NCBI GenBank assembly: GCA_046563655.1
Contig: CM102289.1
Location: forward strand, 2,852,001 to 2,916,000
From: Yuukianura sp. NJ FZ-2021
Lineage: Eukaryota
Length of the DNA stretch: 64,000 bases
Reading direction: 5' to 3'
The translations under genes were made by a program, and so were the position numbers. This document shows positions 679-58,960 of the stretch, piece after piece. The notes below the pieces were generated by a model that searched no databases, was not told the origin of the DNA, and saw only the letters and a program-made list of their open reading frames with translations. How positions within the stretch are numbered: the stretch's first letter is position 1; every line of letters begins with the position of its first letter.

Positions 679-1887
679 TTAAATTGCTTTTCGTGTGTTA
701 TTGCTAGTGTAGTTGACCATGGCTTCCAGAACTTCGTTGACTGCATTATGCATGTTCATTTCACTGTTGTTACCTTGATTGCAAGAAGCAATACAAGCAA
801 CTCTTCCCTGGCGATCAATGACCATTTTGGCATAGTTGACCGTATTACTTCCATTGTGCCAAATAGTTAAACCCTGAGCCCAGCTTTCAAACCCATTAAC
901 CCAGCCAAGGGCATACAAATTGTTAAAGGCGCCGGTGTGTAGTCGCTTATAACTTTCCACCGTGAGAAGTCCCGGAATCCCGAGGTCTCCACGGAGATGA
1001 TCGAGTACAAATTTAGCCCAGTCTTCTAAAGAACAGTGAACTGTGCCAGCAGGACTCAAGACAAGAGGATTGTCCCAGTGAACTGGAATACTGGAATTGC
1101 CCACGGGGTAGTGAGCCCACGGTTGATTAACTTCTCCTGGCACGGAAGTGGGTCCGTACCCGGCGCTGGTCATCCCCAGAGGGCCAAAGACATGCGCTGA
1201 CATCAATTCTTCATAGGATTGGTTCGTGACACGCTCCAACATCGCAGCAGCTACGACAATTCTGCAAATGCAAAATTATTTTTAGATACTCCAAATTTTT
1301 TTAATTTGGTTTTGTTTTTACCCCCAGTTTGAATAAACTGTGACCGTTCCGGGTGCTGGAATGGAATCCACTATGTCATTTAACGCCTTGACAGTGTTGA
1401 GCCTTTGCTCAACCAAAGTCGGAGCAGATTCAGACAACGCAATCCAATCCGGGTTGCCTGGAATTCCAGCGGTGTGGCTCAAAAGATGCAAGAAGTTGAC
1501 CGAGTCGAATTCTGTGCGGAGGTCAAGGTCATCGAAGATACTGCCAACAGTGGTTTCCCAAGTAACACTGCCTAATTCTACGAAACGAGCTACGAGAGTT
1601 GCTGTCATTGCCTTTGTACAAGACCCAAGATGCCAAAGGTCATCCGTCGTCACGTTGACCCCTGACCCGCGTTTTCTGGTTCCCGAGGCGCCGATTCGAA
1701 CTACGCCATTCTCGTTCATAAAGAGACCACCGAGTGCTGGAGCATTGTACTTTGCAACGATTGGTTCCAGCAGAAAACTCACATCTTCCACAGCGTTCGT
1801 TTCAATTTTTCTAGCCAAGCCTAGCTCAGCTCTAACAATACAAAGTACGAGTAAACTTTTAAAAATTAAAGCCAACTTGTACTGCAT
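679..1887 (-). CDS. Secreted beta-lactamase-family (class C/AmpC-like) serine hydrolase, 2 exons (1887-1322, 1261-679)
   Basis: Hydrophobic N-terminus; SxxK (GSCTK), YSN and HNG motifs; 60-bp GT-AG intron 1262-1321 joins the two ORFs in frame (YSNWG|IVVAAAMLER). Confidence 0.92.
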
Positions 1888-2766
1888 TTTGCAAAAAAAA
1901 GCAATTGGCTAACTATTAAAAAACAAAATAACGAAACTTTAAAAAATGCAATTTCGAAAATTTGAAAAAAAAATCGTATGAGTCGGGGTTTTGGAAGACT
2001 GGAGAAACTTTGACCGTGTTGTTACGCCTTTATAGCTTGCTTAAATAGGTATTATTTTGTTAGGTTAGCGACAAGATGAGTCAGCTTAGATGATAAGTGT
2101 ATCACAACTGTGATGATCATCTATTGTCAAGTAGTGTCTCAAATTGAAATTTTGAGTGCTTCAGGACAAATTTAGTGAATTAGCACCATTGTACTGTTCG
2201 TTAATTCCGTGGAAATTCTAACTACTTGTATACTTTAGTATCATAAATCACTCGATTTTGTCTATTAATATAAATTGCATCACGCTTTAAATGAAGCCAT
2301 ATTGATGTAGCCTTGTTGAAACGTTATAACACAAGCCTAACCTAACCATTAAAATGATTCAGTAGTTTCTATCTGATTTTTCTAGAAATGATTCAAGTTA
2401 GATAAATTGTTTTTTTTTTAGATTATGGTATCCATTTGAATGTTGTGTAATAGAAATGAGATAACATTTTTTGTAACACTTCAAATAGATTTTTAATCAA
2501 AGCATGCTGTGAAATTGCACAATGTTCGTAAGTTTACGCCAAGGTTCATAGACAAAAAAAATATTCTACACCAGGTTATCTAATAACTCAAAGTTTTTCA
2601 CATTTGTTTGAAAATAGGAAATCTGCCTTTCCGTGGTAACTTTTTTTGCAGGTAATGTAAATCGGCTTGGTGCTAAAATTTGTTTGAAACCAGATTGTTG
2701 AAAATTCTGACTTACTGGACAACCTATTGTAAGAAATCTACAATTCGGTTGTCAAGGAACCTTGGT

Positions 2767-3995
2767 TTATGCTAACGTGGCAATCAGTCGTAGAACCTCA
2801 TCTCCTGCAACAGTCATTGGCCCATCAGCATACAAGGACCCTTGGTTACATGTAGCAAGTGCCGCCACTCTCCCAACAGGGTCAATCACCACTTTGGCGT
2901 AGTTGTACCCATTCATACCAGCATGTTCAAGGGTTGGCCCCTCAGCCCAGTCTTCTGTCCCAATTCCCCACCCAAGGGCGTACCCACCAAACGGGGCTGT
3001 GTGAAGTCGAGTATAACTTTCCAAAGTCAAAAGTCCCGGGAAACCGAGCTCTCCCCGAAGATGATCCAGCACAAATTTAGCCCAATCTTCTAAAGAACAG
3101 TGAACACTGCCGGCAGGGGTGAGCAGTGGGGGAATGTCACGTTGCGTGGGAATTCCCGTGTTACGTAAAGGGAAATGGCCCCATGGCTGGGTTAACTCGT
3201 CTGGTCCAGAAGTGGGGCCATACCCAGCGGTATCCATGTCCAGCGGTCCAAAAACATGAATGGGCATCAGTTCTTCATAGGATTGACCCGTAACGCGCTC
3301 CAACATGGCTGCAGCGACAGTGATACTACGGAAACAAAATTCAGTTTGTTATTAACTTTTTGAATTTATGCCGAAAACAAGATTTTACCAAAAAATTTTC
3401 TGTTTTTATACCCCCAGTTAGAGTAGGTTGTGTTGGTTCCAGGAGCTGGAATTGGATCTACAATGTCATTCAAAGCCCGAACAGTGTTAACCCTCTGTTC
3501 CGCCACAGTTTCAGCTGACTCAGAAAGCGCTTTCCAATCAGCGTCTCGTGGAATTCCAGAGCTGTGACTCAGCAGATGCAGGAAATTGACAAAGTAGAAT
3601 TCGGGTAACAGGTCAAGGTCATTGAAAATGTTGCCAACGGTGTCTTCCCAAGACACTATGCCCAATTCAACAAACCGAGCTACAAGTGTTGCCGTCATTG
3701 CTTTCGTATCTGAACCAAGGTGCCAGTAGTCGTTTGTTGTCACATTGACCCCAGACCCACGTTTTCTTGTTCCTGAAGCAGCGATTCGCACAGTACCGAA
3801 TTCGTTCATAAAAAGACCGCCGAGAGCTGGAGCGTTGTACTCCGCTACAATTGGTTCCAGAAGATGGCTCACGTTTTCCACTGTTGCAAAAGTATTATTT
3901 GTGGAAATTCCTCTTCCAGTGACGATTTCGACTTGAAAAATACTGATTGTTGCCAGCGTACTCAAAAATAAAATCAGCCTAGATTCCATTTTCAT
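2767..3995 (-). CDS. Second secreted beta-lactamase-family serine hydrolase, 2 exons (3995-3412, 3325-2767)
   Basis: GSDTK, YSN and HAG motifs; paralog of 679-1887; 86-bp intron 3326-3411 at the identical codon position. Confidence 0.92.
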
Positions 3996-4944
3996 TTTGA
4001 AAATTCAAATTTTCTAAAATTATGTACACGTTGCTAACTGAAAATTAAATTCGACCTAGAGCTTTGCACTTTGGATAAGTTTTAGCAATTGGGAACGGAT
4101 AAAGTACTTGTGTTTTATATAAGTTAGAGTACGCTTGTACTGAAGGACGTAGATGTGTAATCGCTGTAAGTACTCAGATTAATCACCGAAGTCTCAAAAA
4201 TAGTGATTCACGAGCCAAAGTTTCAATTACCCGTTTTATCCATTACATTACACTTATCCATTTACAGACGAATTACATTTATCCATAACTCCACTCTTAA
4301 ACTTTTCTTTTCTAATCTTCCACTTGGAATTGTCACCGATTCTGATTTACACGGAAATTGACATAACTGGTGCCCAAAACTATCGTAAAATTGCATAAAT
4401 TTCTTATGCTGTAGAGGAAAATTTAACTGAGGATAGAGAATATCAAAAAGGATTTTACATTAAAACATTTCGACGGTACAGAAAAAAATATAAATAGACA
4501 ATTTAGTAACAATACTAACAACATAATACATTAAAGTTGTAATTTGTGCATAATAAATATAGTAATACATATTGCACATGTTGGTTATTGAAATGTTAGG
4601 CAAGCCAAAAAGACAAAAGCTTTCAGTTTTCCTGAACTTATGCGGTCTATCAATTGAAAATTTGAAATTTTAGTGATCTTTACCACAAACCTACTAACTT
4701 AGTTGCTGAACCCGGAAATCATTATAAAAAAATTATAAAGCAACGACTTTCATTGCAATTAGTTCTCAAGTATTTGGAACCGCAAGATGACAATTGATTT
4801 TTAACTAAAATTCTTCTTATTAAGGGCAATTACTATTGATAAGAAGTTCGCCAGTTCTAAATTGAAGCTTAACTGAGGATCAACTGATCTTCTATTGTGA
4901 ATTTAATTTTAAGAATAACAAAAACTACTCGCAGTACCAGCAGA

Positions 4945-5427
4945 ATGGCGGAATTTCGAGACATGAGCGTTGCTTACACAGAGTCGGAGATTCAACAAAT
5001 TATAGCAAATTGTCGTCGGTTTAAATCTTTTGACGGAACGTCAGTCGCTGCCGACGACATTGGACAAGTTTGTAAAGAAATGCGATTTGGGTTAACACCA
5101 CAGCAACTAAAAATCTACATAGCATTCTACAAAAAACATTTGAACGGACGACTAGTAGTACTTGAAGGCACAGGGGGATTGGAAGAAGTTTTGCGTCGGA
5201 TTCATTCGGTAAGACTCTTGGCTGAATTATTCGCTCAAGCTACAGACAAAAATCAAGATGGAATTATTTCCAAAGAAGAATTTCTGGACACCTACGACAT
5301 GCTGGTTACATATTTTCCAAATCTTGCTGGAAGGACTTATGACGCTTTTGTAACTGAAGCAGACAGGGACGTATCAGGGGATGTCAGCGTAGCTGAACTT
5401 GTAGAATGGATTGCCATGGACAACTAA
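4945..5427 (+). CDS. EF-hand calcium-binding protein
   Basis: Two EF-hand loops, DKNQDGIISKEE and DRDVSGDVSVAE; ATG at 4945; AATAAA downstream. Confidence 0.8.
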   Translation: MAEFRDMSVAYTESEIQQIIANCRRFKSFDGTSVAADDIGQVCKEMRFGLTPQQLKIYIAFYKKHLNGRLVVLEGTGGLEEVLRRIHSVRLLAELFAQATDKNQDGIISKEEFLDTYDMLVTYFPNLAGRTYDAFVTEADRDVSGDVSVAELVEWIAMDN

Positions 5428-5667
5428 AGGATAGAAAATTTTTCAAAAAACGTTATTTTGAAAAATTGAATTAGAATAAAATCTTATTTTCAGAAACAAA
5501 TGGTTTGAATATATTTATTATTTAAATACATGGTTATAATCTTCGCTTAAAATTTTTAGTAAGCAGACGAAATACTGAATTGAAAACAATTTGGTGTAAA
5601 TTGTCTGTATGCAATTGTCAAAGGTGGTGAAAGCTCAGTAGCGTATTTTATGAAAGGCAAAATTATT

Positions 5668-7598
5668 TTAATCTTCTTTTTCCTCCGATTCGGAAAGTTC
5701 AGGGAGGCTCCTTGACAATGAGATGTCAAGAGTGCTGTAAGCTGGCGGCAGCACAGCTACATTTAAATTAAAAAAAATTAAAAAACTGAAAGTTTAGTTT
5801 GCAGTTTTGAATATTTCAAATTTTTTCAAATTTGGTTCCATGTGATTTGGTCAGAAAGTGAAAAGATCAAAAGTGAAATGATCAGAAAAAAAAGGTCAGA
5901 AAAGGAAGGAACTTAACCAAACCTAACCTGAGATCTTTTGAATTCTGACCTTTTCACTTCTGATCATTTCACTTCTGACCAAATATTTCTGACCATTTCA
6001 CCTGCTACGTTCAAATTTTTACCGCCCAGAAGTGCCGTACGATAGTCCGGCAATGACGGCGTAAGACTAAGAACTGACATCGAGCGACGACTGCGACTAT
6101 TCAGCTCTTCTGCTGTCATTTCCAGTGGTTCAAATCTTTGCTGCGCTAGAGGTGGGGCCGACCCAGCCATCAAGCCAGTTGCAAAGGCTTTACCGATTTG
6201 GATTGCAAATTCTTCCGAAATTGAAGTTGAACTGAAGTAGCCACCAATTTGCAGTGTGACCTTCATTAACTTTCAAAAATTAAAGAGTTCTTGAAAAATA
6301 TAGATTCAAAATTTAACGTTACCTGCAATTTATAACGGAATTCGATTGCCAAATCAACACTTCGTTCTGCATGTTCCGCAGAAGCTGGAAGTAGCTCAGG
6401 CGTTTCCAAATGTCCACTCCAGACATGCGACGAATTGGATTCCACGGAAGGTCCGTTGTTGATCCCACCAAGGTCATTTCTGTGTGTAGTTTTGTTGGAC
6501 TTCAAGTACACGAGCTTGAAAAAAGTAAAACAAAATTTGGAATTAGTTTCGGAATTCCAAATTTTAGAAAAAAAATATGCAAAACAAAATATGCAATTCG
6601 AGAAGCATATGGTAACACACTACACTGAGCGTACGTTCTGCAGAACAATCCAAATCTTAGACTTTATAAAACTTAGCTTGCTTAGTTCACTTGCCTACCT
6701 GGATCAAGTGAATTTTGATGCATCGAATTTTCTTCGTCCCGCCATTTTTGACTTTTACTGAAAACTCAATTCTTTGCCCAGAAGAATAGCATTTTTGGTT
6801 AGTTTTGAGCCAAACGTGAATACTCGGCTCGGTTCCAGAGGCCACGCCCAATTCCTTGTCTTGGACCATCGGTTGACCTAGGTCATCTTGACCCACCCAA
6901 CTGGACACATAAGTTGGTGTGACATAAACTAGTCTCTCTTGACGCAATGGTAGCAATCCATCCCGGAGTCGATTAGCCACACATCGAACGCTGTACTTTA
7001 GTCGTCCTCCATTTTCGCCACAACTGAACGACGGAGGACACTCTAATGGTACTTGGATTCCAAATTTATACTCACCCGTTCCCAATCCTGTGACATTGTA
7101 GGCTAAAACCGAGTTTTCAACAACAAAAAGACAAATCAAATTGCATGCAATAAATACACAATAAGTTTGAAAATGTGGTCGGATTTTGAAGTTTTCATAC
7201 CGTTTCCCACAATTGCTTTTTTGGTTTGAATAATTTTCAGTCCTTGGGCTTGGTCAGGACTGTTGTAATATTTTCCTTCAAAAACTACCAAGAGGGCTAC
7301 AGTACCAATAAAAACCATTCGTTAAACAACTTAAATGATTATATATAATATGAAGGTATTAAAGTAGTTATGTAATACGATTCTTAAAATGATTTAGTTT
7401 AAGTCTTTAACACTTACCGCAAATTTCCTCCAAGTTCCAGGGAAGTTCCACAATATTTAGCTTTCCCTCGATCACTTCGCCAGGTTCAAAATTTCTTGTT
7501 TCCTTCTCAATTGAAAATTGAAATCTCATATCCGAAATACTGGCTTTCGGTGGAGCACCGCCACCAACATGGCCAATCAGTGTGCATGCTTGTGCCAT
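5668..7598 (-). CDS. Alpha-arrestin (arrestin domain-containing protein), multi-exon
   Basis: FEPGEVIEGKL, LECPPSF..GRLKYSVR and KCYSSGQRIEFSVKVKN arrestin N/C segments; C-terminal LPDY and PPAY motifs (last exon read manually). Confidence 0.82.
5834..6009. mobile_element. 176-bp Mutator-like non-autonomous element in the last arrestin intron
   Basis: 9-bp TSD TTCAAATTT on both sides; near-identical inverted copy at 39070-39245; internal inverted GGTCAGAA/TGATCAGAA repeats. Confidence 0.85.
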
Positions 7599-8706
7599 TT
7601 CTAACAACAGATTTTACACTACTTTTTGAAATTGAAACAGTCCAATTTCAAAGCAAAGTAACCCCGACAGTTTAAGTTTTAAGGTTTGATAGACATTGAG
7701 TCAATAAAGCAATGAATTATATTGAAATTCAGGATGTACAGAGGTTTAGAACAACCTTACAGTTTGGTGAACGCTTCAAAGGTGATGCTTTTCAAAATTT
7801 TTGTTTCCAATTTTCCTTTTCAAATTTGAACATTTGGGACCTAAATGTTCGCAACGGAATTCATTTCGAAGTGGAACCAAATGCTCTTCGCAGGAGAAAA
7901 TTTTGCACGAACTGCAGAGTGAGTCATCCTTCGTTCCAAGAAAAATCAATACTTTCTCCACATGTTCTCGAAAACATTTCTCCCGTTTACTTTCTCGTAC
8001 CTTTGTAATATCCAGCAAGCAATGAGCATGTAAAGATAAAGCTTTTTTTAAAAAGGTTTCGTCAAATTCAAAACATACGATAATTCGAAACAGACGTAAA
8101 TTCGAAAATTTGACTTTATTTGAGCATCAACATCTAGAAAGTTGACCTTGACCTGGACTGTTTTAAAACCTTGCATGATCTTTAGCTTAACAAATATTTT
8201 GTGTTGTGGCCAACTGCCCCTCCTTTACTCGTCTTGTTCTTAGTTTGGAATTGAACTACTTCAATAACTGTGACGCTAACCTTGGCCAATTCTGCACGCT
8301 AGCACGAATGGCCTAAAAATATATATACAAAACCAACCATAAATTTTTTCAATGTAAATTTCATTTAAAAAACTTACATTTCAAACATAGCTTTTCTTAT
8401 TTTTCGTATACAGCGGAAGCATTTTTCACCGCAACCGCAAAGTTCTCACTTCAATTGAAACTGATAAACTAAAGAAAAATATTGTCGTAAAAAAATTGGT
8501 TTCAAGAACAATTTTCAGTATTGCTATTAAAGTCAGTAAAAAAAATTATGATTCTAATTTTGAAGCAATAGGTTTCATTGTTCAAATTTCAAGCGTTTCA
8601 TTTGAAATTTAAAAAATGGAAACTTGAAAGTAAGTTTGAAAAGTTTTGACATTTTTGGATAAAAGGAGTTGTAAATTATCAAAAACAAATTGGATTTGAA
8701 TGAAAA

Positions 8707-10208
8707 ATGACAGCTTCAAGGTAAAATTGTTACTTGATTATTTTTTTCAATTTAAAGCACCTCTTAATTTGAAAAGGTAATGCGATTTTAGAAAGTCCAG
8801 AGTCCTGTGTGGAGCTATTTTAATATTTTGCCTCATTACTTTTGTAATGGTGACTCAAAATCCATCTTATTCAATTGGCCAATTCAATTTTCCACTTCAA
8901 CTGTCTTCGGACGGATTTAAAATGTCTAACGCCTCAATTTCCAAAATTCAAAATTTCGGAGATCTTTTGCTATCATTTGATTGGGCAGGACTTGCAGAAG
9001 CAACATCTCACGGAGGTTCTGAACGACAAATGGAAGAACTTGAACATAAACAACAAGACCTAATAACGCTTTTGACGCCTTATGTCATAATGGAACCTCT
9101 AGTACCCATTGATGAGTCATGTACTGCAAGGCCATTAACACCGCAAGATGAAATCAAATGTGAAGGTCAAGGAAACATTTTCAAAGGTCACCTTCGGTCA
9201 AAACCTATTTCTAAAATTGGAATCATGGTTCAATTTGGATTTGGAGTAGATGTGCTAGAAATTTATTTGAACGAAGTCTATGACGTTGTGGATCGATTTT
9301 TTATACTGGAGTCCACTAGAGCCCATTTCAGAAGTATTAAAAAATCACTCATTTGGGAACGAGTCAAAGATCAACCTAGATTTCAAAAATTTCAAGACAA
9401 AATCGTACATCTTTTGATTGATGACGCCGAGGCAGCACATACGCGCCAAATTTTCAAAAGTTCACCAAACTCCAATCGCATATTTGAAATGGAAGGACTT
9501 CAAGAACGGCTGCGGTGGGCCAAATTTTTGCAATGGAACAACGCTCATAATTTTTTTAACCAATCGGATATCATTGGTAAATTTTTCGTTTTTCTTTTTT
9601 TTTTGAGATTTTTCTTATGATACAATTTATTTCAAAATTTAGGACTTGGAGATGCAGATGAAATCCCAGCTCGAGAATTAATTAACATGATTCGTCATTG
9701 TCACTTTGACGTAGACCGATTCGATGTCGGAATTTGGTTTAGTTTTGGCAATGCCAATTATGCATTCAAAACTGACTGGCCAGTTCCAGGGCATCCGTAT
9801 ACCCTAGGAGATCCAACATTCTGGACAGTTGAAGCTGCTACAAAGTATGGCCAATCAGTTGAACCACCGTCGCGCATGCGTGGTATGTCAGGAGACTTTG
9901 TCCTCGGCGGAATGCATATGACACATTCTGGATATCTCCCGTTTCAACTTGCAAGAAGAACGTCTTGTTCCGAGTGCCGACCATTTTCGAGTTCTGACAT
10001 TAACTTCTTCGTGACAAGCTTGAAAAACGACGATGTAGCTGCAATTGAAGCAAAACTGGCGGAAGTCCCGTCAGATTTGGTTCAGCGTAACAAGAAGCTG
10101 GAGTACGTAAGCGACATGAATGAAATCGCTATTTTACCATGGTTTTATTCCTGTAATGTGAACAGATATCCGTCATGGCAAGGCAACCATGACACAAGAC
10201 TAGATTAG
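8707..10208 (+). CDS. Glycosyltransferase family 17 (MGAT3/GnT-III-like), type II membrane, 3 exons (8707-8720, 8792-9576, 9643-10208)
   Basis: N-terminal TM segment (VLCGAILIFCLITFVM); LEIYLNEVYDVVDRFFILES; GDADEIP DxD motif just after the second splice. Confidence 0.8.
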
Positions 10209-26485: not shown

Positions 26486-27088
26486 TTTATGCTCTTCTTT
26501 TATCCGGTCCGCAAATTTAAAATTCTATTCATTTGAGTAGCAGTAGCGTATGTCAAATTTATGGTTGGGTCCAACGACACAACGGAGATACTTTAGCCTT
26601 ACGTCAACAAATGTTTGACATGGTAGTAGAAACCTTTTTTTTTTCACTCCATTTTTTAGTATTCATAACAAAAACAGTTTTTAAAGGTTAAGCCTGTTAA
26701 CTTTCAGAATTTTCTTAATTATTGTTGAACAAAGGTGAGTGGTGCTATAAGAGAACAAAGAATGAGAATGACTAGTACATGTTTTAACCAACACGTATTT
26801 TCCACAGAGAACAGCTGATGGGTATATCTTCTGCAAACTCGCGAAGGTTGTATGGGAGAGATAGGGAATTTCACCTTCACTCAAAGTAACAGCTCTGGGC
26901 ATCCCACTTCTCCCTATCTCATACATGGGGGCACATTTTAGTTAAAGTTAGGTTAGGTGAAGTTAGGGTAATGAGCGGCCAAAACTAATTACAGATTCGT
27001 AATCAGCGTAAAAAACTGAGCTAATTGAGATTTTTATCTCAGTTAGACTAGCTTCGCGAGTTTGCAAAAGGAGTTCCCAGCTGATGTA

Positions 27089-28757
27089 ATGTCGATGGAC
27101 GGGTCATTCGAGAGGAGGGTCATTGACCTCCAGAACAGCCTTGAACTGCTCCGTACAGAAGTTGACATGAAGATGAAAATCATGGAGGAGATATTAAGCA
27201 CTAGAAATCGTATGTATAAATACTGAACCACAACGTTTTTAAAGGAAATTATTGATTTGAACGTGTAATCATTTTTTCTGTTAAAATTTTGTTTCAGAAC
27301 AATTCCTTGTTCATAAGAAGTTAATTGAACAGGAACAAGTATTGTTTGAAAACGTTTTAAGTCGTTGGAGAAACCCTACTGGGTTTGTTGGTACCGAAAG
27401 CACAAGTAGTACCGACCGCTCTCATCGATATGCCTCCAGAAGCTCCAATACAGAATTCAATACCTTGGAAAGCCCTTCAGTATCGAATTCCACCAAACGT
27501 AGTTCTACAGAAGCGTTTGGTTCAACTTCGGATCGATTAAGGCTCAGAGCCAAACGCCGAACAAAGGCGGCTTCATACGATGACCCGGAGAGTGATCCTT
27601 TGTCGACTTCGGGTACTGCATTTGAAGGAAAGAAAGAAAGATATGGTGACAGTAATAGCGGGGATATTGACGAATCCGCTGACGACACATTGGATGAAAA
27701 TCTCGATTTATTTCAGAACGTTGAAGCTTGCTCAGATGGTGACTCTGATGACGGAGATTTTGGTATAAGATAAAAACACTTTTGCCCTATAAGTCCACTT
27801 TGAGTAAAGTTCTCACGGGTTACAATACAACCTACAACGAAGAATTGTTAATTTAGCTTGTGCTTTTTTGCAGACGAAAGTGTCGACAACAATGGATTTG
27901 AAAAACGGGTGTTTGTAAACTTCTACTCAACTGATCCTGCAGATGGTGAAGGAAGTACTGACCAAATCTGGCAGCATTTCTTGCATGAAGAAAAAGGAAC
28001 AACAGCTCTTTGCAAACACTGTGACGCAAAAGGGTGCCAGAAAATTTATAAACTGAAAAATCCCGCGTTGACAGTACTGCGACGACATTTGAAAAGAAAG
28101 CATAAAATTATAGTAGAGCCGCCAGCAGATCCTACCCCTATGCAACCAGGCGATGAGTCTGGTGAGCATGACATATTTGGTCAATTCAGTACAGTAAGAT
28201 TAATATTTTTTCTTTTTGTGTTGTTTGATGGGTAGTTAACACAGTCGGTCGTAGAAGATCTCAGATGAGGCACAACAATTACATGTACAAGCGGTTCCAT
28301 TTCAAACGTCACATAGAGTATTTCAGATGTCGTGATTATGCAACATGTCGTGGCCGGGCTCAACGACGAAATGGTGTCGTTGAGCAAACTGCGGAACATT
28401 CGTGTCTAACAACGGAAGCAGAGTAAGACATTAGTTAGTACGTATTGCCTCTGTTGCTGTGTATAATTCTAACTAAGTACATGTCGCAGTGTATTTAATC
28501 TTAGGAGTAAAATGTTGTATGAACTTTATAATATTCTATTTGTTAGTTGCGACGCAGTTGAAGTGCGTGACAAAATCCGGGATATGGCGGAGGATAATCC
28601 GACAATGACCCCAGCTGAAATCATTGCTGCTGCAAAGGAAGGCTATTCATCTGAGGTTCTGGATATTCTTCCATCCGATTTACTACTTTCTAGAACAATC
28701 AAACGGATTCGACAAAACATGATGTCGGCAGCTCCGTTGAGTTCTGATTGGACATGA
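27089..28757 (+). CDS. Coiled-coil / BED zinc finger / FLYWCH-like / helical-domain protein, copy 1 (5 exons)
   Basis: BED: IWQHF..ALCKHC..LRRHLKRKH; FLYWCH-like: HNNYMYK..YFRC..CRGR..EHSC; terminal LPSDLLLSRTIKRIR. Confidence 0.8.
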
Positions 28758-29406
28758 AGCGGAAATCAGGAAATGACTGTATCGAAGTTTTTCAATAAAA
28801 AAATCTCGTGAAAATGTTTTTAAAAGTTACATTTCACGATTTTGCTGTAATTTTTAGAAAGTATCCGTACGTTAGTAGTACATAAACCTTGGTTCGTTCC
28901 TGGATTCTTTGTAAAGCTCGTGTTTAATAAGTAGCTTCAAAGTGGCAGTATTTATTAAGTAAAATTTTTGAGAAGATAATTTATGTGCGAACAATTCAAT
29001 TAATTATAAACCGCAACGTGAAAAGAACAATACTTATTTCCTTTGCCTAATTAATACTTATGCAATTTGTTGTTAAAGAAAAATGAAAGTGAAAGTCCCT
29101 GTGCCGTCTTGAGAGAGAAAGTGTCGCTCCAATCCAACTCACTCTCACTAACTTTTGTTTTGAATTTTGATTCACATCATCACATCCTCTTAGCTTTTCA
29201 ACTTTGACTTTTCTTTTTTCTCGTGAAGGTCAAGGTCACAATTTCCATTGTGATCTTTTTCATCAACAAAGTATTATTAAATGTCCAAGTAATTTGGTAC
29301 TGTAGTTTTCAGGAGTGAAAGCAAAGTCAGCTGATTTATTAAAGGTCGAGGTTCTTATTTGAAGGGTTTAACCAGAAAGCGTAGTAATCTGACTACTGAA
29401 TGCATA

Positions 29407-30955
29407 ATGGCCGTTTCAGTAGAGAGACAAGTTCGTGACCTCCAAAACAGCCTGGATACACTTCGAGCGGAAGTGGATTTGAAAATGGAAATCATTGAAC
29501 AAATTCTGGCCACAAGAAACGGTAAGTAAAGAAATTCCACTCTAAAATGAAGCTTTAATATTCATTTCTACTAAACCAACTTTGCATTTGAACAATTTTT
29601 AGAGCAATTTGCCGTTCAGAAGAAACTCATTGAGCAAGAACACGCCCTTTATGAAAAAGTATTAAATCGATGGAGGAATAGGAATAGGGATGACCGAGAT
29701 TACTCCAACCAAAATATCGCAAGACCCTTGCGAATCGCTCCCGAAGTCTCCATCTCGCATACTACAAAACGCAATTCGACGGACGATTTTCCTATGACTT
29801 CAGAACGAATTCGTCTCAGAGCTAAACGTCGACGGACCTCACCAAATGCCGAGTCCTACGACTTTCCGACATCCGTTTCACAAAGCACGAGTTTCATTGG
29901 AAAGATTGAACAAGGAACTGATGGCGGTTCGGATATTGATGATGACACGGTATTGAGCGACGTAGATCCACTAGACGCTGAAACCGAAACGGATGTGCAC
30001 AACGAAGAGGAGTGTGACGACGGTATAAACAAAAGGAATTATAAAATGTTTGTATCATTTTCTGTTTTGGTTGGTTATAAATTCTTTGGCTTATTCAACT
30101 TACAGATCCAGTAATTGATGACAATGGAATGGAAAAGCAAACTTTTGTCAACATTTATTTATCCGATTCCGATTTTTCAAATCAAGCTGACACAAGCGAT
30201 CCGATTTGGTTGCATTTTTTGCATGAAGAAAAAGGAACACGGGCTCTTTGCAAACACTGTAACGAGAAAGGGCTCCAGAAAATCTACCAATGCAAAGATG
30301 CTGTATTGACTGTGCTTCGGACCCATCTCAGAACCAAACATAAAATTACGGTGGAAGCGCCAAAGCCAGCTCCTTCCACCGTAGAAGCAACGGAGTCTGC
30401 ACGTAAATCTGCTCACATAGAATCTCCGGTTTCAATTCCAAAACTACTTTATGACTTGTCATGTTTTTGTAGAAAACGAGCCAGCTTTAGACATTCGGAA
30501 GAGAAATAATTTGAGACACAACAACTACATGTACAGACTCAACGTCACTCGTGGAACCGTCAATTACTTCAGATGTCGAGAGAGCGGCCTTTGTAGCGGC
30601 AGAGTCATAAGACGAAATGGAATCATCGAGGAAACTGCGGAACATTCCTGCCTGACTTCCGCTGCAGAGTATGCACCTAATTACTAATTAATGATAAACA
30701 CTTAAAACTGATCAATTCGAATCAAGTAAACTCAATTACTAATTTCTTAGTTGTGATGCCGTTGAGATTCAAGACAAAATCAGAGATCTGGCAGAGACGG
30801 ACATGCCTGCACAGGATATAATTGCTGCAGCTAAACAAGGTTATTCCAGTGAAGCAATAGCGCTTCTTCCTAGCAATTCTGCGTTGGTCCGATCAATTAG
30901 AAGAATGCGACTCAAATTAGCCGCTGCTCCACCGCTTGATTCAGATTGGACATAG
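29407..30955 (+). CDS. BED-FLYWCH protein, copy 2 (5 exons)
   Basis: Same domain order and intron layout; NLS-like RLRAKRRR. Confidence 0.8.
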
Positions 30956-31235
30956 AACGAAACCTTCTAACCTTACATTAAGTTTAAATTAAGGTACTAA
31001 GAAGTTGTTTCGTTACCATATTTTGTAAACCAAGCTGGGTTAGTTCCTACAACAGGTGAACCTTTATTTCGACTTTAGTAGAAAGTATAACTTTATTAGT
31101 CTGGTTAGAGAATTACAATGTTAAACGAGGGATAAGCATTCATAAAGTTACCCATATAAATTGTATAAAGGTAGTAAAGTTTTATAAGCAAGTGAATTGT
31201 TTGCAAGAATTGTGTGATTCTCTCCAAAATTGTCT

Positions 31236-31475
31236 TTAGCACGCACGATAGGAGATTACACTGTCACCCATTCCAACTTGGCCATTGGCCAATGTAGTCA
31301 TGGCAGCAACTTCCAGGGAAGAACCGAGCAGAGCGTCCTTCGCAGTTGTAATTTTCCCATAGAATGGTGAATTGATTTTCAGTGCTGATTGAAGAAATTC
31401 GATCGTTCATGAAGTCATCGATATTGTTACACTTGTTGCCATCAGCCCATCCGATAGGAGCTCGGTAGAATGGAC
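31236..31475 (-). pseudogene. Truncated, frameshifted copy of the beta/gamma-crystallin-fold gene (exon 2 only)
   Basis: Paralog of 37695-37927; signal-peptide exon absent; 7-bp duplication TGGCCAA shifts the frame. Confidence 0.85.
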
Positions 31476-32055
31476 CTAATGAATTCAAAACATTTTTGGT
31501 TTCGACCAAACATCCTGTCGGCAACTCCGTTGAGTTCTGATTGGACAGGACATATGAAGCGGAAATCAGAAAACGACTGTACTGAAGTTTTTCAACACAT
31601 AAATCTCTTGTAAATGTTTTTAAAAGTTAGATTTCACTTTCTTGCTCTATTTTTAGAAACTATCCTTACGTGTAGGTAGTTATAACTTTACATAGTAAAC
31701 CATGGTTCGTTCCTGGATTCTTTGTAAAAGCTCGCTTCTAATAAGTAGTTTCAAAGTGGCAGTATTTATTAAGTAAAATTTTTGAGAAAATAATTATATG
31801 CGAACAATTCAATTAATTATAAACCGCAACGTGAAAAGAACAGTAACTACTATTTTATTTACCTATTATTAAGTAGCTTTAGCTACTTTATAAATGTGTT
31901 TTTGTCCGTCATCACGTTTTCCGTCTTGTCCCCATAAGGAAAGCCGGTCCGTCATCGCGTTTTCCGTCTTGGCATAGCAGAAAGCATTGTCATTGCGTTT
32001 TCCGTCTTGGCATAGCAGAAAGCATTGTCATTGCGTTTTCCGTCTTGCCCCGTAA

Positions 32056-32784
32056 AGCCTCTTTCACACCGGATACGTCGTAACAACTGCCGACGGCAGT
32101 TGTGACGGCGTATCCATTCACACCAAACCAACTCACCGCCGGTGAGTTGGACGACGGAAGAGAAAGTTGACGGCGGAAGACGGGTGAGGTGTTCACATTG
32201 CCTCACGGCTGCCGCCGTCACATTTTACGCCGTCAACTCTTCCTACAGGAGGAGATGGGACCCCCAAAAGTTGAAAAGTTTCAACTTTTGGACCAACTCC
32301 GGACGGACAGTTCCCATCTCATCCCAGCTGATCATCCTTCCCTCCTTCTTCCTACGTAATCAGCAGTACCGAAGTAGGAAAAACAAAAGTATAACATTGT
32401 TTAAGTGTTAATTAATAGCTAATTGTGCTAATTAGCTATTAATTTGTGTTAATACATCACCCTATAGGGAAATACGTTGGCTACTCCTCCCAAAGCATGG
32501 TAATAGAGCAATTACACATGAATACTTGTAATCATTTGGTTGTTTTCAATTCATTTAGTTCATATGTCTTCCCATATGAAACTGAAAGGCGCCTTTCAAG
32601 AATTGTGACCAAATGAAGCTGTATCACACCGAGACCGGCGTATAACTTTCCGTAGAAAAAATTTACGGCGTAAAAAGAACCGGTGGTGCAGTGTGAAACC
32701 CATCGACAACTATCTACGGCAGTTTGTTACGCCGGCACAACTGCCGTCGGCAGTTGTTGCGGGGTATCCAGTGTGAAAGAGGCT
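32056..32784. mobile_element. PIF/Harbinger MITE nested in the tandem repeats of the Helentron-like element
   Basis: About 55-bp TIR starting AGCCTCTTTCACAC; TAA TSD; an uninterrupted repeat unit is visible at 31921-31959. Confidence 0.88.
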
Positions 32785-33110
32785 TAAGAAAAGCCTGTCC
32801 GTCATCGCGTTTTCCGTCTTGGCATAGGGAACACCATTGAAAAAAGGTGAAAATATCCGCACAATTATCTCGGAAACTACTGGATCGATTTCGTTCCGGT
32901 TTTCACCATTTAACAGCTAATGACCCGGGTGAGATCAAGTTTGCAAAATCATTCCCGTCAGTGACCTCATTCCGGGTCAAAATCGATCTCAAAGTTCACG
33001 TGAATTGTTAGATGGAGGAAGTGTGGGTATAAAAAACTCTGCTTGTGGGATAGGACACCCATAACTTACATTGTGAACTTTGCGTACTAAAAATCAACGC
33101 CCCCAAGCGA

Positions 33111-35053
33111 AAAACTTGTTCCATCTGATGAGTAAAAAATTCTCAAAAAATTTCAGATTTTTAGGTCAACTCTGACCACTCGCCAATCGGGGTCAAAGTT
33201 TAACAAGGGAATTTGGATAAGACGAGGTCACGGATGTACTGTTTTTTTTCCTGCCCCTCGAGTATAATACTAGCTGTCTACAAACTTTCCAAATATGACC
33301 TCAAGGGTATCAGCTACAACTTTTGTTAAGGGGTCACGGTGCTGGGTATAACGTACTGACCCCCAGGGGTCACCAAAGGTCAACTTAATTTCATCCTACT
33401 CCCACCCCAGGCATGTAATATATCATTGGAAAGGGCTCGACTCCCTGAGGCAGAAAATGCATACATTAACCTTGAATGACCTACCCCTTGACCTCCAGGG
33501 GTCAAATTCAGGTCATCTCTAGCAAGTTAGCCATGTAGCATATCGTTGGAAAGGGCTCGACTCCCTGAAACAGAAAATGTATTCATTAACCTTGTATGAC
33601 CTCCCACTTGACCTCCAGGGGTCAAGTTGAGGTCATCTCTAGCAAGTTAGCCATGTAGCATATCGTTGGAAAGGGCTCGACTTCCTGAAACAGAAAATGT
33701 ATTCATTAACCTTGTATGACCTCCCACTTGACCTCCAGGGGTCAAGTTGAGGTCATCTCTAGTAAGATAGGCTTGTAGTATATCGTTGGAAAGAGCTGGA
33801 CTCCCCGTACATTTATAGAGAAAATGTGTATTTTAACAATAATACTTTCTGTATAGGTCGAACACAATGGCAGGTTAGATGGTACCATATTCGAAAATGG
33901 TGAGCGTACGGGTGCTCTAGCGTTCGACCTATTTAGCATGTATTTACATAAAAGTTTGAACCGAATCGAACAACTCTATGTAGTCAACTCTATGTAGATG
34001 ACTATAAAGATGGGCGACAAAGGGCATCGAACCTAGAAGTTGTGAACGACGTTGCTGAGAGGGGGATTGCCTTGATTAAAACGTTCAATCCCATCGTAAC
34101 AACGCAAGAGGAGCAGAAGCAGTTTCTTTTGCAGATTGTGGAGGAAGCTCGAAAAGAACTCCCTCAGGCTACGAAATCAGCACTTTCTAAGCACTACTCT
34201 CAATAGCTAGTACTAATGACAAGGTGTTAATAGATATCATTTTCTGCTTTGGCTTTCATTAAAAGCAATTATTGAGAAAACAAACCTATTGTTGAATTTT
34301 ACCCCCTTATCTTAACCCCTTGAGGTCAAGTGGGAGAATATATACATTTTCTGTTTCAGGGAGTCAAACCCTTTCCGACGATATGCTACATGCCTAATTT
34401 CCTAGAGATGACCTCAACTTGACCCTGGAGGTCAAGGGGGAGGTCATACAAGGTTAATGAATACATTTTCTGTTTCAGGAAGTCGAGCCCTTTCCAACGA
34501 TATGCTACATGGCTAACTTGCTAGAGATGACCTCAACTTGACCCCTGGAGGTCAAGTGGGAGGTCATACAAGGTTAATGAATACATTTTCTGTTTCAGGG
34601 AGTCGAGCCCTTTCCAACGATATGCTACATGGCTAACTTGCTAGAGATGACCTGAATTTGACCCCTGGAGGTCAAGGGGTAGGTCATTCAAGGTTAATGT
34701 ATGCATTTTCTGCCTCAGGGAGTCGAGCCCTTTCCAATGATATATTACATGCCTGGGGTGGGAATAGGATGAAATTAAGTTGACCTTTGGTGACCCCTGG
34801 GGGTCAGTATGTTATACCCAGCACGGTGACCCCTTAACAAAAGTTGTAGCTGATACCCTTGAGGTCATATTTGGAAAGTTTCTTGACAGCTAGTATTATA
34901 CTCGCTGGGCAGGAAAAAAAACAGTACATCCGTGACCTCGTCTAATCCAAATTCCCTTGTTAAACTTTGACCCCGATTGGCGAGTGGTCAGAGTTGACCT
35001 AAAAATCTGAAATTTTTTGAGAATTTTTTTCTCATCATATGGAACAATTTTTT
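33111..35053. repeat. Large inverted repeat (arms about 700 bp) containing 120-bp tandem units
   Basis: Arm 33111 to about 33810 is the reverse complement of about 34320-35053; TATCGTTGGAAAG recurs at 33541, 33661 and 33781. Confidence 0.92.
33997..34206 (+). pseudogene. C-terminal fragment of a DDE-type transposase
   Basis: Translates LEVVNDVAERGIALIKTFN..QEEQKQFLLQIVEE; I recognise VVNDxAERG as an arthropod DNA-transposase motif; no start codon. Confidence 0.65.
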
Positions 35054-35844
35054 CGGTTGGATGGTACGATATTCCAAAATGGTGGAGATGCGGGTTCTCT
35101 ATTGTGGGACTGGAAAGGTAAATGGCATGGGAGTTGGTTTTCTGCTTAGCAAAAAATGTACTACGCAGCAGTTCACCAACACACCCATGCACTGTCCAGT
35201 CCAGTGCCCATTCCTTCTGTTGTTGCTTTATCCATATCCTACCTCTTCACATCTCTGCTTGACCTCACCCCCATTTGCATCGGGGGGGGGAGTGAGAAAG
35301 TGGGGAAAACACTGCCGCACTCCCCCTCGGGTGGCGGGAAAGTGGGCGAAACACCCCCACTCCCCCGGGAGGGGGGTGAGGGAAACAAACTGGGGGAACA
35401 CGCACCCGCCCCCACTTCCACTGGGGGCTGATTAGTCCTGTTTGTTTAAAAAAAAACACCTAAACGCTAAAGCTACTTTTTTATGTGCGGTTTACAACCG
35501 GTTTATTATGCAATTTATGTTGTAAAAAAACTGAAAGTGAAAGTCTCTGTGCCGTCTAGAGGGAGAAAGTGGCGCTCCAATCCAACGCACTAACATTTGT
35601 TTTGAATTTTGATTCACATCTTGATCTTAGCTTTTCAACTTTGACTTTTCTTTTTTCTCGTGAAGGTCAAGGTCACAATTTGCATTGTAATCTTTTTCAT
35701 TGACAAAACATGATTAAATGTCAAAGTAATCTGACACTGTAGTTTTCTGGAGTGAAAGCAAAAGTCAGCTGATTTATTAAAGGTCGAGGTTCTTATTTGA
35801 AACTTTTAACCAGGAAGCGTAGTAATTTGACTACTGAATGCATA

Positions 35845-37393
35845 ATGGCCGTTTCAGTAGAGAGACAGGTTCGTGACCTCCAAAACAGCCTGGTTACACT
35901 TCGAGCGGAAGTGGATTTGAAAATGGAGATTATTGAACAAATTCTGGCCACAAGAAACGGTAAGCAAAGAAATGTCACTATAAATTCTAAAATGAAGCTT
36001 TAACAGTCATTGCTACAAACCAACTTTGCATTTGAACAATTTTTAGAGCAATTTGCCGTTCAGAAGAAACTCATCGAGCAAGAACACGCCCTTTATGAAA
36101 AAGTATTAAATCGATGGAGGTACAAGAATAGGGATGAGCGGGATTACTCCAACCAAAATATCGCAAGACCCGTGAGAATCGCTCCTGATGTCTCCATTTC
36201 GAATACTACAAAACGTAATTCAACGGACGATTTTCCTATAACTTCAGAACGGATTCGTCTCAGAGCTAAACGCCGACGTACCTCGCTAGATGCCGGGTCT
36301 TATGGATTTTCGCCAACCGTGTCACAAAGCACGAGTTTCATTGGAAACATTGAACAAGGAACTGATGGCGGTTCGGATATTGATGATGACACGGTATTGA
36401 GCGACGTAGATCCACTAGACGCTGAAACCGAAACGGATGTGCACAACGAAGAGGAGTGTGACGACGGTATAAACAAAAGGAATTATAAAATGTTTGCATC
36501 ATTTTCTGTTTTGGTTGGTTATAAATTCTTTGGCTTATTCAACTTACAGATCCAGTAATTGATGACAATGGAATGGAAAAACAAACGTTTATCAACATTT
36601 ATTTATCCGATTCCGATTTTTCAAATCAAGCTGACACAAGCGATCCGATTTGGTTGCATTTTTTGCATGAAGAAAAAGGAACACGGGCTCTTTGCAAACA
36701 CTGTAACGAGAAAGGGCTCCAGAAAATCTACCAATGCAAAGATGCTTTATTAACAGTGCTTCGGACCCATCTCAGAACCAAGCATAAAATTAGCGTGGAA
36801 GCACCGAAACCAACTCCTTCGACCGTCGAAGCAACGGAAGCTCCACGTAAATCTGCTCACCTAAAATCTCCAGTTTCAATTCCAAAACTACTTTCTAACA
36901 TAATATTTCTGTAGAAAACGAGCCACCTTCAGACATTCGGAAGAGAAATAATTTGAGACACAACAATTACATGTACAGACTCAACGTCACTCGTGGAACC
37001 GTCAACTACTTCGGATGTCGAGAGAGCGGGCTTTGTAGCGGCAGAGTCATAAGCCGAAATGGAATCATTGAGGAAACTGCCGAACATTCCTGCCTAACTT
37101 CCGCCGCAGAGTATGTACATAACTACTGATGAATTGCAAAATGATGATCTATGCATCTTCCATTTGTGAACTCATTTAATTTTGTTAGTTGTGATGCCGT
37201 TGAGATTCAGGACAAAATCAGAGATCTGGCTGAGACGGGCATGTCTGCACAGGATATAATTGCTGCAGCAAAACAAGGTTATTCCAATGAAGCTATAGCA
37301 CTTCTTCCTAGCAATTCTGCGTTGGTTCGATCGATTAGAAGAATGCGACTCAAACTAGCCGCTGCTCCACCGCTTGATTCGGATTGGACATAG
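35845..37393 (+). CDS. BED-FLYWCH protein, copy 3 (5 exons)
   Basis: Close paralog of copy 2 with open exons. Confidence 0.8.
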
Positions 37394-37694
37394 AACGGAA
37401 CCAAATTCTAACCTTACATTAAGTTTAAATTAAGGTAAGAACTTGTTGCGTTACCATTTTTTGTAAAAATTTACCAAGCTCTGTTAGTTCCTACAACAGT
37501 TTAACCTTTAGTACTAATATTTCGATTTTAACTTTAGGAGGTACAACTTTATTTGTATGTTCTGAATTTCAATTTTAAACGAGGGATAAGCATTCATAAA
37601 GTTACCCATGTAAATTGTATATAAAAGGTAATAAAGTTTTCTAAATAAGGGAATTACTTGCAAGAATAGTGTGAATCTTTTTCCAAAATTGTCT

Positions 37695-38111
37695 TTAGCA
37701 AGCACGATAGGAGCTTACACTGTCGCCCATTCCAACTTTGCCAATGTCGTCATGACAGCAACTTCCTGGGAAGAACCGAGCAGAACGTCCTTCGCAATTG
37801 TAATTCTCCCATAGAACGGTGCATTGATTTTCAGTGTTGATTGAAGAAGTTCGATCGTTCATGAAGTCATCGATATTGTTACACTTGTTGCCATCAGCCC
37901 ATCCTATAGGAGCTCGGTAGAATGGACCTAAATGAATTCAAAAGAGTTTTTGGTTTTAGATTTAATATTGAACGTAAATTTAGATTTTTAGATTTTGCCT
38001 TATAACTAAAATTTTACCGCGAAAAGCAACGTCGTCATAAAAGTACATTGCCTTCGTTTGAGCCGTCAAGCTCAAGAAGACGAAACTTGTGATTGCGAAG
38101 AATTTCAGCAT
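37695..38111 (-). CDS. Small secreted beta/gamma-crystallin-fold protein, 108 aa, 2 exons (38111-38018, 37927-37695)
   Basis: MLKFFAITSFVFLSLTAQTKA signal peptide; FYDDVAFRG..NDRTSS and LWENYNCEG..GDSVSSYR Greek-key patterns; 6 Cys; not in the ORF track. Confidence 0.8.
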
Positions 38112-57648: not shown

Positions 57649-58960
57649 CTAGAATGTTAGGAGTAGATCGATGACAATGGCAATGACAGTTTCATGTAGG
57701 AGTACAGCAAAAGAGTTTTCTCGGATATCATAAGCACCACCAAGACTCCATTTCAACGGCGGCGCAGACCGAAGGAACCGCTTCTCCACTTTGAAAAGTC
57801 GTGCATTGTGGGGATACTTTGTTTTGAATTTGGCAGACAAAGTGGTTATATGAGACGCCATTGGCAGGATCGTAGCACAGAGTGCTGATGTTAGAAAGCC
57901 AATTAGGGCAATCAAGCCTATCATTGCAATGCTCAGTGTTGTAGCGAAGCGGAAGATACAAAAAATTGCAGTGGTCATCATTACGCATGCGTTGAGGAGA
58001 GCCAGCGGCAACATAAAAGAAGCGACTTGATTTGCAGCACTGTGAAACACTTGATGTGCTCTGTAGACCAGTCGCAGTTTTGCTCTGGCGTTCTCGGTCA
58101 GGATTTTTCTTTTCATCCTAACATGATATAAACTAGTTTGTAAAATAATAAAATCAAAATTTTGAATTTTTCAGGTCATTTTCTTTACCAGCAGTTTTGA
58201 AAATGAAGCCATCGAGAGATGGAGTTAGTGTCGATGAGCATTTGAGAGCAAAACAACAGTACCAGGAACCAATCGATCGAAGTTACTACCGCAATATGGA
58301 GAGCTCCAAGTTGGCGTCCGGCAGGAATGTACGAAATCACAAGTTTTGGAAACCAAACAACATTCCAATCCTTGCGCATCATTATGTCAAAGGCGACACA
58401 GATTAAGCAGAAGGATACTGCGGGTACGATGAGAAACAAATGCAGAGTCCACTCCAATCCGTCCTTAGATATTTGCTTCTTTCGAAACAGAACTCCTAAT
58501 AATATTTCAAATAATTCAAATTATCAAATAAACAAATTATGACTCTTTAGTACTTTCTCCAAATTTTTTAATTAAAAATGTGATTACCGAGTTTTTCATT
58601 GAAAAGTACTAGGCCGTTAGCATAGCTCAGGATTTCTTCAAATTTTGTCATGAACAGAATATGGACAGCCATGGCCAAAATGCTGGTGGAGATGAAGAGA
58701 ATGAGAAAAATGGCGTCCCGTACTTGGTCACACCAGAGCACGATGTAGGCGCAAAAATAGGTTAGAGCAACGGCGTGATTCATGAATACTCCAACTACTG
58801 CCAGTCGCCAAAATGGAATTTTGTATCCAGGTAAATTTATGGACATGTCATTTGATTTGATGTATCCAATTCCAACGTCGTTTTCATAAGGACTTACAAG
58901 CAGGCAACGCCAAATGTTGTGCGCCATTCGTATGGCTTTGAAACTTTGTTTGGAGATCAT
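57649..58960 (-). CDS. Divergent 7TM chemoreceptor-like protein, 3 exons
   Basis: Three hydrophobic ORFs; C-terminus LRSAPPLKWSLGGAY...VIDLLLTF. Confidence 0.7.

Follow-up and report, generated by a model that had tools for sequence, protein, structure and literature searches.

Three tandem genes joining a BED finger to a probable Phantom-type MULE DNA-recognition module in Yuukianura sp.

Three five-exon genes at one locus

A stretch of 64,000 nucleotides (nt) from the genome of Yuukianura sp. NJ FZ-2021 (assembly GCA_046563655.1, contig CM102289.1, positions 2,852,001 to 2,916,000 of the forward strand; hereafter the window) carries three related genes, here called c1, c2 and c3, between window positions 27089 and 37393. 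Each would encode a protein in which two different zinc fingers, of the BED and FLYWCH families, precede a helical tail. The comparisons set out below make it probable that these genes represent a lineage-restricted host gene present as three tandem paralogues, each with a captured DNA-recognition module of a Phantom-type Mutator-like element (MULE), and that they are not parts of mobile elements. The window is AT-rich eukaryotic DNA, with a GC content of 33–44%.

An annotation previously made from the letters of this DNA (the sequence-only reading) had described three five-exon genes. All three could be rebuilt from the sequence as follows, and the range that had been given for them runs exactly from the ATG of c1 to the stop codon of c3.

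27089–28757, plus strand: c1 (copy 1), five exons, 420 amino acids, stop TGA
27089–27209, 27298–27762, 27874–28161 (BED), 28245–28422 (FLYWCH) and 28547–28757 (helical tail), plus strand: exons of c1
29407–30955, plus strand: c2 (copy 2), five exons, 410 amino acids, stop TAG
29407–29521, 29603–30022, 30106–30402 (BED), 30473–30668 (FLYWCH) and 30751–30955 (helical tail), plus strand: exons of c2
35845–37393, plus strand: c3 (copy 3), five exons, 410 amino acids, stop TAG
35845–35959, 36047–36466, 36550–36846 (BED), 36915–37110 (FLYWCH) and 37189–37393 (helical tail), plus strand: exons of c3

All 12 introns begin with GT and end with AG, measure 68–124 nt, and fall in phases 1, 1, 1 and 2 in each gene. 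The frames are open in all three copies, each with a single stop immediately after the residues DWT at the same position throughout, and an AATAAA sequence occurs at 28794, downstream of c1. The first copy had been described as well diverged yet retaining its metal ligands, introns and DWT end, and the alignments agree with that description. Between c1 and c2, synonymous sites are saturated, the folded parts are 54–67% identical and the linkers only 24–32%, yet the intron phases and the position of the stop are unchanged. A larger gene with extra coding exons downstream was considered and ruled out, as the stop position is conserved in three synonymously saturated copies and no MULE-like coding sequence lies beyond it.

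Searching the window with the three proteins (tblastn) revealed no further copies, except for a 53-nt relic of a last exon at 31498–31550 that has lost its stop. We also used contig sets X1, X2, X3 and X5. The five sequencing runs found for this stretch, from two studies, are all DNA contigs and include no RNA. Those of X3, which carry a second organism label, cover parts of c1, c2 and c3 with few differences.

Immediately upstream of c1, a multicopy repeat (26811–27087), whose 53-nt inverted ends are imperfect, stops 1–2 bases before the start codon, and contigs diverge at around position 27063, just 5′ of this ATG. Thus, the promoter or 5′ untranslated region of c1 may lie in or beyond a miniature inverted-repeat transposable element (MITE).

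The FLYWCH finger and tail resemble a transposase module

The order of domains is the same in each copy: a heptad-patterned N-terminus, a basic motif, an acidic linker, the BED finger, the FLYWCH finger and a tail of four helices. Essentially this architecture, with a coiled coil-like start and a FLYWCH finger of C-C-H-C type, had been proposed from the sequence, and it is borne out by Pfam matches, invariant ligands and the heptad pattern. Pfam was run on 13 stop-to-stop exon frames, comprising exons 1–5 of c1, exons 1–5 of c2 and exons 3–5 of c3.

The FLYWCH model (PF04500) matches exon 4 of c2 with 24.8 bits, above its gathering cut-off of 23.6, and the ligand columns C, C, H and C are invariant in all three copies. 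The copies of this exon read Y-F-R-C and E-H-S-C, a pattern that departs from the Trp two residues before the first Cys and the C-C-H-H ligands of the family. Judged by these residues, the finger of c1–c3 is a variant FLYWCH finger. A profile of the FLYWCH exon searched against 1.84 billion representative proteins returned 11 matches at E<=0.001. The nearest match with a single finger (P0005) is a 68-residue fragment that is 40% identical and has an H-x-C ending in common with c1–c3. Among solved structures, a sequence search with the exon found only 2rpr (FLYWCH1), at E 0.12.

One of the 11 matches, P0008, carries four FLYWCH fingers and a MULE domain. Each of these fingers is followed by a helical stretch ending in ...P...L.KTIERKR, which resembles exon 5. 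The repetition of this tail after each of the four fingers suggests that finger plus tail form one duplicating unit. Using the last module and the core of P0008 as a query, we obtained 81 Phantom-like relatives, named from beetles, shrimps, mites, aphids and root-knot nematodes, of which 31 with lengths of 440–530 residues were aligned and 50 shorter or longer rows were left out. Phantom transposases are described in the available text of PMC3169594 as having an N-terminal FLYWCH domain and then a MULE domain. Pfam places FLYWCH at about 7–64 and MULE at about 189–282 in Phantom proteins of roughly 470 residues, and the tail stretch between them is not covered by any model. Proteins P0012–P0092 show a conserved helical stretch at residues ~65–135, between FLYWCH and MULE.

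The spliced finger and tail of c1–c3 (three sequences) align with the 31 FLYWCH–MULE proteins by hhalign with a probability of 98.7% (E 3e-16) over 121 columns, and the tail alone aligns with a probability of 96.3% (E 1.5e-9) over 68 columns. The observed scores of 91.5 for finger plus tail and 47.4 for the tail compare with top scores of 17.1 and 16.1, respectively, in 40 column shuffles each. Comparison with the four modules of P0008 likewise gave 96.3% (E 1.4e-9), and an independent alignment with MAFFT also places exon 5 over this Phantom stretch. A hidden Markov model (HMM) of the Phantom tail matches at the expected place in c2 (32.8 bits), c3 (30.7 bits) and c1 (18.8 bits), but has no match in P0007, which is FLYWCH1-like, or in P0001, which carries three FLYWCH domains. 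The tail is therefore a mark of the transposase type of FLYWCH module. These results uphold the earlier proposal that FLYWCH and a helical segment ending LP..L.R.I.R.R correspond to the part of MULE transposases that precedes the catalytic domain.

Structure prediction for exon 5 with AlphaFold2, using the Phantom relatives as alignment, yields four helices (residues 2–14, 20–28, 33–37 and 42–58) with a mean pLDDT of 88.8, and the last of these helices is basic. Foldseek found no match to this model in the PDB at E<=0.001. The best Z value obtained with VIA-align is 4.8, and N-terminal domains of TetR proteins and transposase DNA-binding regions are scattered at Z 4–4.8, which is within noise for small helical models. 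A word-indexed search of longer proteins with the exon-5 alignment gave 2330 candidates, none at E<=0.1, and exon 5 has no meaningful sequence match among solved structures. In the Atlas, its nearest clusters are unnamed eukaryotic proteins, with a recognition value of 1950 that falls below the 2300 mark.

An old host FLYWCH factor could also give rise to such a protein, if finger and tail came from an ancient stock common to FLYWCH factors and MULEs and the BED finger was added by exon shuffling. Identity to the Phantom modules is only about 22%, a value that counts against capture as well and is too low to point to a particular donor element or time of capture. Furthermore, an intron splits the module and synonymous sites are saturated between c1 and c2, which shows that the family is not a recent one. 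FLYWCH factors in general are believed to derive from Mutator-type elements, according to the portions of PMC1702500 and PMC10027918 that were available. However, the Phantom-tail HMM distinguishes c1–c3 from the host-type proteins P0007 and P0001, and an HMM of the module spans positions 5–127 in the c1–c3 proteins but only about 10–78 in the finger repeats of P0007. Moreover, the c1–c3 proteins end a few residues past an A-P-P motif, at the point where the transposases continue with the region leading into their catalytic domain. Descent from a shared ancient stock seems unlikely to us in view of these features, and capture of a Phantom-type module is the explanation that we prefer.

The N-terminal half and a BED finger of untraced source

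The 62 residues at the N-terminus are heptad-patterned, and in the best register 11 of the 18 a/d positions are hydrophobic. Registers 4 and 5 score 9 and 10, and the three poorest registers score 1–4 of 17–18. A complex prediction for two copies of exon 1 (38 residues) gave a score of 0.03, which counts neither for nor against dimerization. The heptads are followed by a conserved basic motif, RLRAKRR, and then by a linker in which 28 of 120 residues are acidic. Pfam found no domains in exons 1, 2 and 5 among the frames scanned.

Exon 3 of c1 matches zf-BED (PF02892) with 24.5 bits, above the gathering cut-off of 20.6. The BED ligands C48, C51, H73 and H78 and an upstream I-W-x-H-F sequence are invariant in all three copies, and c2 and c3 are 61% identical to c1 across the core of this exon. 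In the Atlas, exon 3 of c2 lies nearest to BED clusters, with a score of 0.96. The exon is symmetric, being bounded by phase 1 introns on both sides, and such an exon would suit exon shuffling.

The sequence-only reading had derived the two fingers from two transposon superfamilies, MULE and hAT. Its MULE part is supported by the homology of finger plus tail described above. Its hAT part lacks support in that form: the BED finger could be traced to no transposase, and its classification as hAT-type reflects only a general association. A word-indexed search of longer proteins with the BED exon of c1 gave 82 candidates, none of them significant, and a sequence search of solved structures with this exon gave no meaningful match. 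Neither a hAT catalytic (RNase H-like) region nor a hAT dimerization domain was found, as BED and FLYWCH are the only domains that Pfam gave in the 13 exon frames. Furthermore, none of the 81 Phantom-like relatives (0/81) has a BED domain in precomputed Pfam annotation. In these searches, the BED finger is thus not traceable to hAT or to any other transposase, and a derivation of the protein from two superfamilies is at most putative.

Tandem duplication and purifying selection

Self-comparison of the window by blastn matches 29058–31502 with 35506–37956 (89.5% over 2485 nt) and 28705–29054 with 31498–31872 (83.8%). The segments concerned are the following.

28705–31502, plus strand: first duplication unit, comprising the end of the c1 last exon, the 3′ flank of c1 and all of the c2 unit
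31498–31872, plus strand: start of the second duplication unit, with a c1-like last-exon relic (31498–31550) and a copy of the c1 3′ flank
31458–31613, plus strand: frame that contains the relic and reads ...SSDWTGH...
31866–35502, no strand assigned: inserted repeat block of 3.6 kb that splits the second duplication unit in two and is missing from some same-sample contigs
35506–37956, plus strand: remainder of the second duplication unit, with c3 and its flanks

Because these matches include the c2 unit together with the 3′ flank of c1, c3 arose by a tandem segmental duplication of about 2.8 kb that started inside the last exon of c1, and not by transposition. The duplicated segment included the 3′ flank of c1, c2, the flanks of c2 and a small open reading frame (ORF) on the minus strand. 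This ORF, at 31264–31626 and again at 37695–37937 (both minus strand), has sub-threshold Pfam matches to beta/gamma-crystallin (E 0.01) and to a yeast killer toxin fold (E 0.007).

A contig joint from 31865 to 35503 in X1 and X5 skips the repeat block, one X5 contig bridges it, and word depth over the block is 10–50 times that of the genes. The block was inserted after the duplication. Another contig joint, from 31490 to 37985, might be taken for a haplotype that lacks c3, but it was not used because its shorter side measures 30 letters and lies in paralogous sequence.

The exons of c2 and c3 are 93.8% identical with 0 gap columns, compared with 85.1% and 14 gap columns in the introns and 90.5% and 52 gap columns in the flanks. 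The two genes differ by 46 synonymous and 30 non-synonymous changes, which correspond to a synonymous divergence (dS) of 0.190, a non-synonymous divergence (dN) of 0.032 and a ratio of 0.17 (Fisher's test on sites, p 1e-13). A comparison of dN/dS among the copies had been suggested as a check on neutrality, and its outcome is not neutral. By region, the ratio is 0.06–0.15 in the coiled coil, BED finger, FLYWCH finger and tail, and 0.29 in the linker; within the transposase-derived part, it is 0.074 for FLYWCH and 0.091 for the tail. On these ratios, c2 and c3 evolve under purifying selection. Given that the two genes diverged in place, selection acted on the loci themselves.

Residue differences between c2 and c3 number 29, of which 8 are derived in c3, 2 are derived in c2 and 19 are not polarizable. 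Intron 4 of these genes (30669–30750 in c2 and 37111–37188 in c3) is only 61.5% identical, whereas intron 2 is 98.8% identical and the flanking exons are about 94% identical. This unevenness may result from local replacement, from insertions and deletions or from patchy gene conversion. Both observations could be accommodated if the genes were unexpressed or decaying duplicates whose frames are open by chance or through gene conversion, as the excess of replacements in c3 includes two basic finger residues and the uneven identity could reflect conversion. Such decay is highly improbable, however, given the low dN/dS ratio and its p value, the lack of any exon indels compared with 66 gap columns in introns and flanks, and the preservation of ligands, splice sites and stop even in c1, which is synonymously saturated relative to the others.

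No transposase core and no mobile-element features

A tblastn search of the window with the 31 transposases matched only exons 4 and 5 and involved no transposase residue beyond ~135, in agreement with the previous statement that a transposase core is lacking. The MULE (DDE) domain PF10551 has no Pfam match in the gene exons, and tblastn revealed no MULE core anywhere in the window. A weak tblastn match outside the genes, at 57748–57840 (minus strand), is to the FLYWCH start of one Phantom transposase (48% over 31 residues, E 0.005); Pfam finds no FLYWCH domain in the ORF around this position.

Flanking terminal inverted repeats had been named as a further point to check. When the 1.5 kb on the two sides of each copy, and of the cluster as a whole, were compared, no match in inverted orientation reached E<=0.1. 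Summed contig word depth in X1 is 109–338 over the genes, the same as over unique flanks, whereas neighbouring repeats reach 1200–9900; this depth is taken only as consistent with low copy.

These observations bear on whether c1–c3 are instead ORFs inside a multicopy transposon, each specifying a truncated, DNA-binding-only transposase derivative of repressor type that was copied by transposition. The C-terminal module is indeed transposase-derived and lacks the core, and multicopy repeats adjoin the genes, with one boundary at about 27063, before the ATG of c1, and a block between c2 and c3. Set against this are the lack of inverted repeats around the copies and the cluster, the equal depth of genes and unique flanks, and the copying of c3 in tandem together with flanks that are not element sequence and a fragment of c1. 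Moreover, four introns interrupt each gene, including one within the module, in contrast to the Phantom relatives, which consist of one open frame of about 470 residues on short contigs. In addition, purifying selection followed duplication in place. We therefore judge a transposon ORF to be very unlikely, and continue to favour a host gene.

A predicted regulator with two zinc fingers

In the host-gene model that we favour, the C-terminal ~125 residues (exons 4 and 5) would represent the DNA-recognition module of a Phantom-type MULE, ending where the catalytic region would begin. Capture would have joined this module via phase-1 introns to the heptad-patterned N-terminus, the RLRAKRR motif, the acidic linker and a BED finger of untraced source. 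The family would then have grown by local tandem duplication, with an old split between c1 and c2, whose synonymous sites are saturated, and a recent one between c2 and c3 (dS 0.19).

The genes c1–c3 are presumably expressed, and their product would most likely be a regulator in the nucleus that binds specific DNA sequences, probably as a dimer. Such a protein would read DNA sequence with two different zinc fingers and would probably dimerize through its N-terminal helix, and its acidic region would act in the regulation of transcription. Ancestrally, the protein presumably targeted the ends of the MULE family from which its module was captured.

Several observations weigh against this model. 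BED scores fall below the Pfam cut-off of 20.6 in c2 (17.1) and c3 (18.0), and FLYWCH scores fall just under the cut-off of 23.6 in c1 (22.6 bits) and c3 (23.0 bits). The FLYWCH finger is also atypical, as all three copies have Cys in place of His as the fourth ligand and Phe in place of the name-giving Trp. None of the 11 proteins matched by the FLYWCH-exon profile is an orthologue or a close homologue. No solved structure convincingly matches the fold of the tail, whose DNA binding is therefore a prediction. In addition, tblastn with the 31 transposases uncovers no donor MULE in the window, contig word depth is not a copy number, and the splicing of c1–c3 is a prediction from the sequence. 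Finally, c3 has lost an Arg before the first Cys that is conserved in the 14 Phantom rows inspected. With one of its 8 derived changes (versus 2 in c2) at this conserved Arg, c3 may be under weaker constraint.

A more specific role would be that of a fixed anti-transposon repressor, a dimer combining a Phantom end-recognition module with a BED finger for another class of element. The protein would then sit on subterminal repeats, where it would block transposases or nucleate silencing, and divergence of the tandem copies would serve to follow different families of elements, a shift of which the finger changes of c3 would be one instance. If true, this would be a rare case of a transposase-derived anti-transposon gene with dual specificity in an animal, and the family would also represent a living intermediate in the birth of FLYWCH transcription factors from Mutator elements. 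The sequence-only reading had envisaged repression of hAT and MULE ends that it took to be abundant in the window. This finds no direct support: the adjoining repeats examined have target duplications of 8 bp and 3 bp, and no MULE coding remnant was found in the window by tblastn. We rate a dedicated repressor as quite unlikely, and return to the broader model of a host regulator with a captured module.

Relation to known systems

Phantom-type MULE transposases, whose range is given as arthropods, nematodes and others, provide the closest comparison. They carry FLYWCH and a helical stretch of ~65 residues ending ...LP...L.R.I.RR.R...AP, which are homologous to the c1–c3 module column for column. 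Unlike these transposases, c1–c3 lack a MULE/DDE domain, inverted repeats and any sign of many copies, and they have introns. They also add a coiled-coil-like N-terminus, an acidic linker and a BED finger upstream, and they have Cys rather than His as the last ligand and Phe rather than Trp before the first Cys.

Host FLYWCH proteins include isoforms of Mod(mdg4), C. elegans PEB-1 and FLH-1/2/3, and vertebrate FLYWCH1 (PMC1702500 and PMC10027918, as far as their available text goes). As seen in those portions of the two papers, c1–c3 resemble the genes for these proteins in that a FLYWCH finger is used by the host with no transposase core attached; the known cases act on transcription or chromatin. 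They differ in carrying the Phantom tail, which P0007 and P0001 lack, and in having neither a BTB domain nor a tandem array of fingers. A FLYWCH finger joined to a BED finger is not among the host architectures described in the same text.

ZBED genes are host genes with BED fingers derived from hAT transposons, according to the available part of PMC10027918, and, like c1–c3, they encode a BED finger but no transposition machinery. In c1–c3, by contrast, the BED finger adjoins a second finger of probable MULE origin, and Pfam detects no hAT remnant.

Fusions between host and transposase genes can also arise by transposase capture. An example is KRABINER, and the fusions covered in the accessible text of 10.1101/2020.05.07.082677 are from tetrapods and mostly involve KRAB. 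There, as predicted for c1–c3, a transposase DNA-binding domain is spliced to other exons and kept by selection, and the expected function is that of a sequence-specific regulator. However, c1–c3 reside in an invertebrate-like genome, the putative donor is a Phantom-type MULE, and the partner contributes a BED finger and an acidic region rather than KRAB. The words 'MULE' and 'Mutator' have no occurrences (0) in the accessible text of that paper.

Overall, the process is known, both as capture of transposase domains and in the form of transposon-derived FLYWCH and ZBED factors, whereas the combination of BED with a FLYWCH–tail module was not met before in the parts of the literature that were available. 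No protein with both fingers is described in that related literature or emerged from the protein searches, although supplementary domain tables may list one.

Domestication of transposase DNA-binding domains is a recognized route to new regulators, and well-resolved animal cases that involve Mutator or Phantom elements are few. The boundaries at this locus are unusually clean, as the whole end-recognition module appears to be kept, the catalytic part is absent, and the module is predicted to be spliced behind an unrelated finger. The finger plus its four-helix tail would offer a testable definition of the Phantom transposase DNA-binding unit, and the three genes would be candidates for studying the part that duplication plays in the evolution of a new two-finger regulator or of an anti-transposon factor.

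Neighbouring repeats and genes

Two elements were noted within the repeat block. A non-autonomous element of foldback type at 33051–35101 has inverted arms of 638 nt that are 98% complementary and consist of 120-nt tandem repeats, with an 8-bp direct duplication at its flanks. Subterminal repeats of 120 nt lie at 33409–33805 and 34304–34782. This insertion is polymorphic or recent, because the site is empty in contigs of X1, X2 and X5. A MITE-like element at 32053–32785 has 58-nt terminal inverted repeats and about three shared letters at the joint, and is skipped in contigs of X1, X3 and X5; its very high word depth indicates that it is multicopy.

The rest of the window is ordinary, gene-rich host DNA, a setting that also speaks against a transposon. 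It has genes for beta-lactamase-like, EF-hand, arrestin, glycosyltransferase 17 and 7tm_7 chemoreceptor proteins, as well as for short-chain dehydrogenase, P450, F-box, carboxylesterase and rhodopsin-type receptor proteins. A beta-lactamase-like gene (PF00144) is present as two tandem copies at 679–4004 on the minus strand, each extending over two long open frames.

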